In this document: piece by piece, positions 383 through 5,309 of the stretch
Layout: each line of letters begins with the position of its first letter
Position numbering within the stretch: position 1 is the stretch's first letter
Source of the DNA: Octopus vulgaris
Taxonomy: Eukaryota
DNA: 64,000 nt
Assembly (NCBI GenBank): GCA_951406725.2
Contig: OX597817.1
Coordinates: forward strand, 58,466,001-58,530,000
Reading direction: 5' to 3'
Position numbers and translations under genes: made by a program
Notes under the pieces: generated by a model
Databases searched by the model: none
Told to the model about the DNA's origin: nothing
Seen by the model: only the letters and a program-made list of their open reading frames with translations

Positions 383-413
<31 letters not shown>

Positions 414-420
414 CATATAA
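1..420. repeat. (TA)n/(TACA)n compound microsatellite
   Basis: Pure TA/TACA repeats. Similar tracts at 632-866, 3447-4682 and dozens of other sites produce the IY/TH/CV junk ORFs. Confidence 0.99.
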
Positions 421-631
421 TATAATATTATTAGAGACAAAACCACTATTTTGCAAAACAAACAAGGACTTTTTATTAAAATTTTATGTATTGATTAAGT
501 CTTTCCTTGCTTGTTTTGCAAAATAGTGGTTTTGTCTCTAATAATATTATATAATATTTTACTATAAAATTGGATTTAATCCTAAATCTGATTTTTTCCC
601 TGTAAATTTGGATTTATTCCCTAATATTTAT
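421..631. mobile_element. Fold-back remnant between (TA)n tracts, probably the end of a Penelope-like element
   Basis: 48-bp inverted arms 421-468 / 504-551 (1 mismatch) followed by a unique tail; same layout as the ribozyme-bearing elements at 4682 and 6496. Confidence 0.55.
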
Positions 632-864: not shown

Positions 865-3022
865 ATAAATCCTTAAATCCTTAAAAATGTTTTAGCCCGA
901 AGGCCGCGGCCATGCTGGGGCACCACCGCTGATTGAGCTACACTAGTTTGTGAATCCACCTCTGATACGTGGCACTTGATCAACAAGGGAGTTCGATGCT
1001 GCTTCCCGCATCCGTGTCTCCTGTCGTGAGGTAGGTTCATCTGGGACTCCCAACAAGAAGAGATCCAGTTTAGTTTTAAAGAAACCCACATCCACACCAT
1101 GTAAGTCTCTCAGGCATTTAGGGAGGATGTTAAAGAGCTGTGGTCCTCTGAAACCCAAGCTGTTGCAGTATCTGGACCTGTATTTTGATGGTGATGTTGG
1201 AATCCTTGGCACCACGCAGCGGCGCCCCGTTCTGCGGTTGGAGTAACTTTGAATGCCAAAGTTTGGGACAAGACCCTCCAGGATTTTCCAGATGTATATC
1301 ACTGCATATCTCTCCCGCCTCCGCTCCAGGGAGAAGAGGTTTAATACCTTCAGTCTTTCCCAGTAGCTGACATTTTGCATTGAGACGATTTTCTTTGTGT
1401 AGCTTCTCTGTGTTGCTTCGAGTTCTGCTGTTTGTTTTATATTGTGTGGTGACCAAAGTTGGGAGCAGTAGTCCAAGCGGCTGAGGACAAATGTTTTCCA
1501 TAGGACCATCAGTGTCTCCTTCTCTCTTGTTCTGAAAGTTCGGAGAATCCATCCAGCTAGCCGTCTGCATTTTATCACCAGATTAGCAATATGCATTTGG
1601 AAAGATGCATCATTGCTCATGTCAATGCCCAGGTCACGCACTGATTTTGACTCAGGGATTGCAATTCTTCCTGGGCCAGTGTATCCAGTCTTCACGTCAT
1701 TTACCTTTGTGTGCCAGTAGCGCAGGGCCTGGAATTTACCTGCATTAAACTGCATGTTGTTGTCCTCAGCCCACCTGTATATTGTGTCCAGCTCATGTTG
1801 CAGATGCGCAATATTTTCAGGGTTTTGTATTGCGTGGGAGACTTTTGTGTCATCTGCATAGCTAGCAAGGGTGGTCATCGTAGCAACTGAAGGCATGTCT
1901 GAAAGGGCCACTATGAACATCAGTGGCCCCAAGACAGTGCCCTGTGGGACACCGCTTGTTATTTGCGTTTCCCTGGAGGTGGCTCCATTGCTCACAACTG
2001 CCTGTTTTCTGTCTTTTAGGAAGTTGTGCAGCCACTCTCCAAGTTTCCCGCCTATGCCGAGACCACGCAGTTTGTGACAGATCATACCATGGTCGACTTT
2101 ATCAAAGGCTTTTGCAAAGTCAAGATATATTACATCCACATTTGAGCCATTTAGTAGCTGTTTCAACACCCAGTCATAGTGTTGCAGGAGCTGTGTTAGG
2201 CAGCCTCTACCTGGTCGAAATCCATGCTGGGTGTCAGACAGTAAGTCATTTTCTTCAAGGAACATGATTAGTTTCTTACGGACTATTCGTTCCATGACTT
2301 TGCTGATGTGTGAGGTCAGAGAGATAGGCCTATAATTTTTAGCATCTGCTCTGCTACCTCCCTTATGGATAGGGCATATTATCCCCTCTTTCAGTTTGAC
2401 TGGGAGCTTACCACTTGCAAGAAAGCTCTGAAAAAGAAGCTGTAGCGGTTTTGCAAGGGCTCGTTTGCACGATTTGAGAAGGATCGCTGGGAATCCATCA
2501 GGTCCAGCAGCTGAGTTTGTGTCAATCTCATCAATGGCTAGTGTGATATCATCTTCTTCGATGTTGATGTACTCAATTTTTGTCTCTTTGGCCGCTGGTA
2601 AAGTGGCAAAGAATTCTTCTGGGTTGTTTACTTGCCTGTGTCCTAGAGGTGTAGTGAACACACTTTGGAACTGTTCGTTCAGTATTTCACTTATCCTCGT
2701 GGGATTTCCTGTGAGAGAGCCATCTTTTTGGAAGAGAGGTCCTATTCTCTGGTGCACTGTGGCTGTCTCTTTGGCAAACTTAAAGAAAGCTTTAGGGTTT
2801 GATTTTATATTTTCTATTACCCAAGCTTCTTTATCTGCTCTCTCCTTTTCATGGGACTCATGTAGACTTTTCTCAGTTTCCATTAGCATTCTTTCGAGCC
2901 GAGACTTCTCACCACTTTTGGTGTGCTTGCTCAGGCGGTTTGCAATCCTTGTCCGTCGTCTCATAAGAATCCTCCTTTCTCTAGGGATCCTGTTTTTGTT
3001 CTTGTGTGTGCTGGCCCTGCAC
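865..3022 (-). mobile_element. 5'-truncated CR1-group (CR1/L2-like) LINE with intact 3' end
   Basis: Uninterrupted RT ORF, short 3' UTR with GGTGCCCCAGCATGGCC plus hairpin, and a (TTTAAGGA)2 terminal repeat abutting (TA)n. No endonuclease domain present. Confidence 0.93.
943..2964 (-). CDS. LINE ORF2 reverse transcriptase and C-terminal region (frame stays open up to the truncation at 3022)
   Basis: Motifs AGPDG, NYRPISL, QHGFR, YLDFAKAFDKV, GVPQGTVLGP, YADD, RDLG; 673 aa with no stop. Confidence 0.95.
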   Translation of the reverse strand: MRRRTRIANRLSKHTKSGEKSRLERMLMETEKSLHESHEKERADKEAWVIENIKSNPKAFFKFAKETATVHQRIGPLFQKDGSLTGNPTRISEILNEQFQSVFTTPLGHRQVNNPEEFFATLPAAKETKIEYINIEEDDITLAIDEIDTNSAAGPDGFPAILLKSCKRALAKPLQLLFQSFLASGKLPVKLKEGIICPIHKGGSRADAKNYRPISLTSHISKVMERIVRKKLIMFLEENDLLSDTQHGFRPGRGCLTQLLQHYDWVLKQLLNGSNVDVIYLDFAKAFDKVDHGMICHKLRGLGIGGKLGEWLHNFLKDRKQAVVSNGATSRETQITSGVPQGTVLGPLMFIVALSDMPSVATMTTLASYADDTKVSHAIQNPENIAHLQHELDTIYRWAEDNNMQFNAGKFQALRYWHTKVNDVKTGYTGPGRIAIPESKSVRDLGIDMSNDASFQMHIANLVIKCRRLAGWILRTFRTREKETLMVLWKTFVLSRLDYCSQLWSPHNIKQTAELEATQRSYTKKIVSMQNVSYWERLKVLNLFSLERRRERYAVIYIWKILEGLVPNFGIQSYSNRRTGRRCVVPRIPTSPSKYRSRYCNSLGFRGPQLFNILPKCLRDLHGVDVGFFKTKLDLFLLGVPDEPTSRQETRMREAASNSLVDQVPRIRGGFTN

Positions 3023-3446
3023 TTTTTTTTTTTTTTTTTTTTATCTTAGCCAATATAACTTTATTACACTCTCCAAGCAATGAATCTATCTGTAACCATA
3101 ACCTTTGATTACTTTCTCATAACTTCGAATCTTTTTGCTCACAGTCTCTTTAGCTTTTCTTTTCAAGGCTGCATCAGATCTTGCTTTTCCAACAAAGATA
3201 CTAGATTTCGCCTTTCTTTTAGCTTCTAAACTGGCAATGACAGGTTGGTATTTCCAGCCAACTTCATGGGCCAATCGATTCAAATCGCAGTACTTTCGGC
3301 CAGGTTTTAAACGAATAATTCGGTGAGCTGCTGGAACAATCATTCGCTTCGTTTTGTTGTACTGAGGAGGGATTCCCTCAAATGCCTTCAGTCGGCCAAG
3401 AGCATCTTTTCCACGCTTAATTTTATGAGGAAGCATACCTCTGACT
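3023..3446 (-). pseudogene. RPL13A: Processed pseudogene of 60S ribosomal protein L13a, 5'-truncated
   Basis: [44 protein letters not shown] to TAG at 3086-3088; intronless; AATAAA at 3060-3065; 20-nt poly(A) at 3023-3042. Confidence 0.95.
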
Positions 3447-3551
3447 ATATATATATGTATATATATATGTATATATATGTATATATATGTATATATGTAT
3501 ATATATGTATATATGTATATATATGTATATATGTATATATATGTATATATG

Positions 3552-3646
<95 letters not shown>

Positions 3647-3659
3647 GTATATATATATG

Positions 3660-3690
<31 letters not shown>

Positions 3691-4124
3691 GTATATATAC
3701 ATATATGTATATATATACATATATACATATATATACATATATATACATATATACATATATATACATATATATATACATATATATATACATATACATACAT
3801 ATATATATATATACATATACATACATATATATACATATACATACATATATATACATATACATACATATATATATATATATATACATATACATACATACAT
3901 ATATATATATATACATATACATACATATACATACATATATATATATATATACATATATATATACATATACATACATATATATATACATACTTATATATAT
4001 ATACATATATATATACATACATATATACATATATATATACATACATATATATATATATACATATATATATACATACATATATACATATATATATACATAC
4101 ATATATATATACATACATATATAT

Positions 4125-4165
<41 letters not shown>

Positions 4166-4423
4166 CATATATATATATACATATATATACATACATATAT
4201 ATATATATACATATATATATACATACATATATATATATATACATATATATATACATACATATATATATATATATATATACATATATATATACATACATAT
4301 ATATATATATACATATATATATACATACATATATATATATACATATATATATACATACATATATATATACATATGCATACATATATATATACATACATAT
4401 ATATATATATACATATACATACA

Positions 4424-4455
<32 letters not shown>

Positions 4456-4609
4456 CATATATACATACATACATATATATATACACATACATATATATAT
4501 ATACATACATATATATACATATACATACATATATATATATACATACATATATATACATATACATACATATATATACATATACATACATATATATACATAT
4601 ACATACATA

Positions 4610-4681
<72 letters not shown>

Positions 4682-4688
<7 letters not shown>

Positions 4689-5309
4689 ATGGAGTCGAAC
4701 GAGGATTTTAACACAATTCCTTTAATTTCAACACATGTTTCGAAGACTGCATATTCTTAATTCTGAAGGAATAAGGTGCATTATGCCGTCTTCTCATCAG
4801 GAAAGTCAAGGAAAATCAATCAGCCTCAAGACGGACAAAAAACATTTCTATGGCTTGCTACATATTGACCACAGTGGTAATGAGTGATTTTAAAAATCCG
4901 TTAAAAGCAATGACATCAAAAATGTTTGGAAGAGGAATTTATGAAAATATGAAAATCAGTCATTATCACTGTGGTCAATATGTAGCAAGCCATAGAAAAG
5001 TTTTTTGTCCGGCTGGAGGCTGATTGATTTTCCTTGACTTTCCTGATGAGAAGACGGCATAATGCACCTTATTCCTTCAGAATTAAGAATATGCAGTCTT
5101 CGAAACATGTGTTGAAATTAAAGGAATTGTGTTAAAATCCTCGTTCGACTCCATTCTTTTACTCATTTTAAATATTACACAAATTACCACACAAGAACAC
5201 GGAGTTTCTACCTTTGGCATGTAGCTTCAACCGTATTTTCTGACGTGAATTTGCTACCCAGGTATCGGTTAACCGAAGTATCAATACTAGGATAATTCAT
5301 TCACCTACT

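Follow-up and report, generated by a model that had tools for sequence, protein, structure and literature searches.

The window analysed here is a stretch of 64,000 nucleotides of the Octopus vulgaris genome (contig OX597817.1, positions 58,466,001 to 58,530,000), and the insertion described lies on its minus strand. It consists of a 5′-truncated and spliced copy of the ribosomal protein gene RPL13A with its poly(A), followed by a 5′-truncated LINE. The features are listed below in window coordinates, in the order in which they are read on the minus strand.

3447 to 4683, no strand: (TA)n-type tract flanking the insertion 5′ (TRF and sequence)
3439 to 3446, minus strand: last 8 nt of the upstream RPL13A exon, the 5′ truncation point of the retrocopy (comparison with the parent exon)
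3086 to 3438, minus strand: spliced RPL13A/uL13 coding sequence, C-terminal 118 codons (comparison with the parent and PDB match)
3043 to 3085, minus strand: RPL13A 3′ UTR with AATAAA at 3065-3060 (sequence)
3023 to 3042, minus strand: A20, its start being the mRNA polyadenylation site (parent gene and RNA contigs)
943 to 3022, minus strand: 5′-truncated LINE ORF2, open to its stop (open reading frame, RVT_1 match and sister alignment)
867 to 942, minus strand: LINE 3′ tail, two hairpins (about 929-894) and then GGATTT(AA) repeats, without poly(A)
621 to 866, no strand: (TA)n-type tract flanking the insertion 3′ (TRF and sequence)

This order, from the truncated RPL13A coding sequence through 3′ UTR, AATAAA and A20 to a LINE ORF2 without spacer and the LINE's own 3′ end, had been given in a preliminary description of the locus and was read again on the minus strand. 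The placement of both parts in the same orientation and in one TA context was found as described, the tracts 4683-3447 and from 866 flanking the chimera. The parent exon ends with the same 8 nt that open the retrocopy and continues with a GT donor, and the first A of these 8 nt is common to the retrocopy and the TA tract. Within the coding part the exon junctions are at 3293/3292 and 3170/3169, and the stop TAG is at 3088-3086 (minus strand). The LINE part (3022-867) comprises the 3′ 2,156 nt of its family and starts directly after A20 with zero spacer, at a truncation point between the endonuclease and RT domains; its tail before (TA)n at 866 reads TTTTTAAGGATTTAAGGATTT on the minus strand.

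The poly(A) of the retrocopy runs into the LINE and not into a copy of the 5′ flank, so that there is no target-site duplication around the retrocopy itself, and around the whole unit such a duplication is unreadable, since (TA)n makes up both flanks. The LINE start is not repeated 5′ of the retrocopy in the window sequence, therefore there is no L1-type target duplication. The chimera (RPL13A-A20-LINE) as a unit gave one full match only in the genome search, which rules out its amplification as a unit. Long inverted repeats were also seen at the outer edges of the TA tracts (window 406-566 and 4793-5050), with arms of 63 nt (90%) and 99 nt (95%). In the 10 kb before window base 1 (L041), a sister LINE of 75% identity is present twice, each time in a TA tract, and the region is an insertion hot spot.

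The protein of the retrocopy was identified as uL13/RPL13A by its best PDB match (E=9e-70), while the Pfam search recognised no domain in this uL13 fragment of the window. The parent gene was located by genome search on G000:C3, where three exons match at 99-100%, and the first 8 nt of the retrocopy come from the exon preceding these three. The retrocopy thus crosses three parent exon junctions and lacks three introns of about 4.6 kb, 2.7 kb and 89 nt, the position of the last being also visible as a joint in contigs. The comparison with the parental gene, which had been proposed as a check, further gave 3 differing nucleotides in 414 (substitutions at 3351, 3324 and 3269) and only AA in the parent genomic sequence at the start of the tail, so that at least 18 nt of the A20 are without template in the parent gene. 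Contigs X4 and X12, which come from two studies and whose RNA nature was guessed by program, are polyadenylated at the same site as the A20. None of the three substitutions of the retrocopy occurs in the transcript-like contigs, which come from three runs. In the DNA-type run X1, contigs extend across two exon junctions and one of them carries a retrocopy-specific base, which places the spliced copy in genomic DNA; the assembly may itself derive from the X1 sample, and in that case this evidence is not independent of it. The depths in X1 are 37 and 48 for the spliced contigs and 54-77 for the intron-bearing contigs. Spliced contigs of run X14 were considered as the insertion in another animal and rejected, as they carry the parent allele.

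With its introns absent and a non-templated poly(A) at the mRNA cleavage site, the RPL13A part has the characters of a processed pseudogene, and window 3446-3023 (minus strand) is a retrocopy of spliced RPL13A mRNA. This pseudogene has no promoter, is present in one copy, shows no sign of function and is almost certainly inert. Two older RPL13A fragments were found elsewhere by genome search, on C17 (95%; L005, G000:C17:17110514-17110646) and on C24 (83%; L006, G000:C24:23853510-23853618). Both are retro-fragments without poly(A) which break off within the coding region at a (TTA)n or TA-rich stretch, and internal priming is possibly the reason for their truncation.

The LINE is a young, abundant, (TA)n-inserting and CR1-like element. 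Its ORF2 remnant in the window matches RVT_1 (E=5e-30), and the sole named close homolog is from Argonauta (59%). The family searches returned 1,694-2,502 candidates, which are first-look figures and not copy numbers, and the best 40 scored each time were at 99-100%. Longer copies of the family carry a pyrimidine-rich 5′ region of more than 1 kb, an ORF1 and an endonuclease-RT ORF2. The domains Exo_endo_phos_2 and RVT_1 are present in the 75% homolog P0001, and an endonuclease-type frame was read by eye in the sister copy L033; the window, P0001 and L033 combined give an AP-type endonuclease followed by RT in ORF2, which is the arrangement of the CR1 group. A family-wide frameshift in ORF2 was considered and rejected, since 20 of 24 copies read in frame. 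Relative to 63 sister loci, some of them overlapping, 6 substitutions over 2,148 nt are private to the window LINE. An ORF1 at L046:4862-5620 (minus strand) gave a weak CCCH zinc-finger match (E=0.001, below the cut-off), and the term "CCCH" does not occur in a chordate CR1-group survey (bioRxiv 10.64898/2026.01.13.699120). One further copy (L309, G000:C2:81394858-81397029) is 84% like the family in its 5′ part and 97-99% in its 3′ part and is likely a recombinant between subfamilies.

The tail of the family is made of short GGATTT(AA) repeats running into (TA)n without poly(A), and some sister tails are A-rich. The two tail hairpins are common to SINE and sister-LINE tails; in 8 tails picked by hand, pairing is 97.9% and 2 pairs have changed on both sides, under a hairpin model taken from the window's own fold (z=-2.0). 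Short repeats together with a stem-loop common to partner SINEs are the characters of a stringent-type tail. The element had been called a stringent, CR1-type LINE, and its structure and its non-poly(A) hairpin tail fit a CR1-group, stringent-type element, where the CR1 type is taken from structure and not from a tree and the stringency is presumed. The homologs of the window ORF2 carry no clade labels, and its PDB relatives are distant L1 and R2 elements only. By itself, this LINE presumably cannot prime on poly(A).

The junction between A20 and the LINE was compared with the sister loci that cover it, and all of them (29/29) have CCCA(A/G)T ahead of the base with which the LINE of the window begins; therefore the LINE offers no A-run for annealing. 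The A-rich stretch for which the preliminary description wanted the LINE searched is thus absent, and A-rich microhomology at the junction was rejected, there being at most AA, one base away. For the 5′ ends of the sisters, 83 points were collected; 76 copies remain once 4 gaps, 2 internal deletions and 1 second point of a copy already counted are taken out. Their 5′ junctions are with (TA)n in 59, with TA-like sequence in 8, with a local LINE duplication in 5 and with foreign filler in 4, the "other" class having been sorted by eye. Poly(A) stands at the 5′ junction in none of the 76, so that the chimera is unusual and accounts for under about 4% of copies. TA-type sequence is kept at the 5′ end of 67 of the 76 and is missing at the A20/LINE junction, which is evidence against the LINE arriving second. 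The foreign fillers (L266, L071, L035 and L052) separate the TA tract from the LINE by about 40-200 nt, and the one in L052 is an inverted piece of a related LINE.

The private changes of the two parts are 3/414 for the retrocopy and 6/2,148 for the LINE (Fisher p=0.17, a low-power test). Their ages are compatible under this weak test.

These observations bear on an origin by two sequential insertions, in which a poly(A)-recognising LINE, either L1-Tx1 or a poly(A)-tailed CR1-group element, first left the retrocopy in the TA tract, and a later insertion of the TA-targeting LINE hit the exact A20/TA boundary. Elements of the group are found directly behind A-runs (30 SINE-start loci and 33 tail loci, L181 among them), two LINE relatives of 75% within 10 kb mark the region as a hot spot, and the retrocopy is nominally the more diverged part (0.72% vs 0.28%); yet this difference in age is not significant, and the second element would have needed an exact hit with zero TA left. 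L1-Tx1 has been recently active in Octopus (PMC13282606), therefore a separate maker of the retrocopy is available, and Zenon CR1-group elements in molluscs are described with poly(A) tails (bioRxiv 10.64898/2026.01.13.699120). On the other side, no retrocopy ending in poly(A) and then TA was found in the search with RPL13A DNA and those with five Pfam families, 3 of the 30 actin loci being covered. Taken together, two sequential insertions are unlikely. An assembly artefact, with retrocopy and LINE misjoined across the homopolymer, agrees with a region rich in low-complexity sequence and with the contig comparison having left out the repeat 3013-3054, that is, the A20/LINE junction; it is hardly credible, given the spliced contigs with a retrocopy-specific base in X1, the private substitutions of the window LINE and the sisters without an A-run for a misjoin.

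Chimera formation is common in this genome. From 48 scored U6 loci the 30 best-scoring (L087-L116) were sorted by eye, and LINE or SINE sequence is joined to 22 of these 30: in 12 the shared hairpin tail is reached within 101 nt, 10 continue into other SINEs, and the remaining 8 look unfused. In 10 of the fused loci the junction lies 7-12 nt before the shared tail hairpin motif, a cluster which suggests that either the switch or RNA cleavage is favoured at this place. One locus (L092, G000:C1:168128179-168128285) joins U6 to the last 68 nt of the window LINE family at 97%. Chimeras of the U6 type had been invoked as the precedent for template switching; the precedent stands in so far as the same family forms one (L092), but it is imperfect because RtcB ligation can also make such chimeras (PMC6789731).

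An RNA-level fusion of this kind at the RPL13A locus would mean an RtcB-like ligation of the mRNA tail to a 5′-cleaved LINE RNA and then retrotransposition via the LINE tail, and it would agree with the blunt junction and with the abundance of U6 chimeras in the genome. Poly(A), however, normally ends in a 3′-OH unless it is cut by an endonuclease. The ligation demonstrated for human U6/L1 needs a cyclic-phosphate or 3′-phosphate end, RtcB ligates 3′-OH ends poorly, and U6 with a 3′-OH was not overtly ligated in the experiments reported (PMC6789731). Fusion at the RNA level is thus very unlikely, and, poly(A) being a poor RtcB substrate, the locus argues for cDNA template jumping by a non-L1, non-R2 LINE.

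Other mRNA-derived copies were searched for with the RPL13A DNA and with the Pfam families L7Ae, 60S acidic, EF-Tu D3, S3Ae and actin; for actin, 3 of the 30 loci fetched were inspected. The Pfam-family searches returned mostly parent exons, and the fragments that they gave besides RPLP1 are all old or broken and lack a junction of poly(A) with an element. A near full-length RPLP1 retrocopy, 85-91% to its parent, lies on G000:C8 near 54.72 Mb (L117/L222; L222:3348-3910). Its A-rich run is absent from the parent gene and runs into nt 1 of a tRNA-type SINE, which ends in (TA)n and shows a decay similar to that of the retrocopy. It is the only other poly(A)-bearing retrocopy found and is likewise fused to an element, and so it is a possible second mRNA chimera, one old enough for a later SINE insertion. 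The other mRNA fragments (RPL13A on C17 and C24, RPS3A at L229 and a broken actin at L249) have no poly(A)-LINE junction. Two genes seen in these searches are candidate old retrogenes. One is an intronless, intact and divergent actin gene (L232, G000:C8:84622639-84623757), which is about 78% like the closest of the four actins with introns used for comparison; the other is EF-Tu-like and has an open frame of 457 aa (L224, G000:C5:144777030-144777299).

A pattern search for A16 followed by the SINE start gave 30 distinct loci without TA between A-run and element. A poly(A) signal of the form A(A/T)TAAA stands 10-30 nt upstream in 3 of these 30, against a background of 3.5%, therefore no general mRNA route is demonstrated. 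The corresponding search for A14 followed by the shared tail gave 33 loci, most of which are SINEs with an expanded internal A-run; in L181 the tail of the window LINE family comes directly after A17, and L206 is the only plausible mRNA-end candidate among the 33. At L193:2460-2520 and L206:2480-2520 the sequence reads AATAAA, a spacer of 15-25 nt, an A-run, and then the SINE start or a LINE-type tail, and both are possible mRNA-end chimeras within a group at chance level. Towards the scan for other poly(A)-LINE junctions suggested earlier, the Pfam-family searches gave the RPLP1-SINE case, the 76 sister 5′ junctions none, and the A16 pattern search three signals in 30. The proposed route to processed pseudogenes draws on the RPL13A and the older RPLP1-SINE cases, without a clear excess of poly(A) signals (3/30). 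That end-to-end jumping onto mRNA poly(A) is a recurrent, genome-wide source of processed pseudogenes for a tail-specific LINE/SINE system is a tentative and rather doubtful proposal, founded on both poly(A) retrocopies (RPL13A and RPLP1) and most of the top-scoring U6 copies being fused to elements. If it is true, many poly(A) retrocopies in cephalopods and in other genomes with stringent LINEs could be such chimeras.

For the RPL13A locus itself, the chimera was probably formed in one retrotransposition event, with the LINE RT jumping onto the poly(A) end of the RPL13A mRNA. We infer that both parts entered together and that the switch took place at the cDNA stage rather than by RNA ligation. 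The absence of A-rich homology and of a TA spacer, the compatible ages and the U6 chimera of the same family make a single event the best reading. The switch of the RT from LINE RNA to mRNA poly(A), which the preliminary description had put forward, is accordingly retained but unproven, as neither a contig crossing the A20/LINE junction nor an empty allele was seen and elements of the group sometimes sit directly behind genomic A-runs. L1 favours A-rich targets, which clouds the L1 chimera cases; the ambiguity is smaller here because the window LINE family inserts in (TA)n. In the proposed event, the RT of the young CR1-like LINE would have begun target-primed reverse transcription at a (TA)n tract, starting from the tail of its own RNA, copied 2.16 kb of the LINE and halted between the RT and endonuclease regions. 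It would then probably have jumped end-to-end onto the poly(A) 3′ end of the mature, abundant RPL13A mRNA, perhaps via one or a few untemplated T, and copied about 420 nt of it, the 5′ end then being joined with a one-base overlap to the TA tract. Untemplated additions are described at R2 junctions (PMC11331408).

Chimeras of comparable form are known. Doucet et al. 2015 (PMC4476161) describe U6-L2, U6-Mon-1, U6-RTE and U6-CR1-like chimeras in platypus, Anolis and turkey and explain them by template switching; as in the octopus, a 5′-truncated cellular RNA is joined 3′ to a 5′-truncated LINE or SINE of stringent type, and both parts point the same way. Their acceptor is U6, whereas here it is a spliced mRNA entered through its poly(A), in a mollusc; according to that paper only a few snRNAs take part in the mechanism, and genomes with stringent LINEs have few processed pseudogenes. 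Human mRNA/LINE-1 chimeric insertions (Law and Burns, PMC11838501) likewise have unique mRNA sequence 5′ of the LINE in one insertion, mostly in sense. Their sense examples, as presented, are mostly first exons on a near-full-length L1 attributed to trans- or cis-splicing, with a poly(A)-recognising L1, whereas the octopus case joins the 3′ end of an mRNA with its poly(A) to a truncated LINE whose tail is not poly(A); a poly(A)-joined case may be among the 17 mRNA/L1 chimeras tabulated in the supplement of that work. The RtcB-ligated U6/L1 chimeras of Moldovan et al. 2019 (PMC6789731) have the same blunt junction between a cellular RNA 3′ end and a truncated LINE RNA, but they depend on a 2′,3′-cyclic phosphate, which is present on U6 and normally absent from poly(A). 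In the retrocopies made by LTR retrotransposons the RT also moves from element RNA to a cellular mRNA; those switches occur at sequence similarity and leave LTR sequence on both sides (PMC5470649), unlike the present junction. Zebrafish L2 inserts (PMC4760211) resemble the 9 of 76 octopus sisters with extra sequence at the 5′ junction, foreign sequence being frequent there in stringent LINEs, but the additions described in zebrafish come from flanking genomic or LINE DNA and not from spliced mRNA.

In the literature searched, with subscription papers and supplements outside its range, no report was found of a spliced mRNA joined via its poly(A) to a CR1/L2-type LINE. The new part is therefore the poly(A) mRNA as acceptor, such chimeras being otherwise known. 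Retrocopies are held to be scarce where CR1 or L2 dominate, because such LINEs recognise their own tail (PMC5470649, PMC4476161), and the review among these sources (PMC5470649) regards CR1 as limited in what can be retroduplicated. Against this background, the RPL13A locus is a young and clean example of a stringent-type LINE apparently carrying a mature mRNA end, and it offers a genome-wide test, namely the sequence which follows the poly(A) of retrocopies. If the reading is true, LINEs without a poly(A) tail could still make gene copies.
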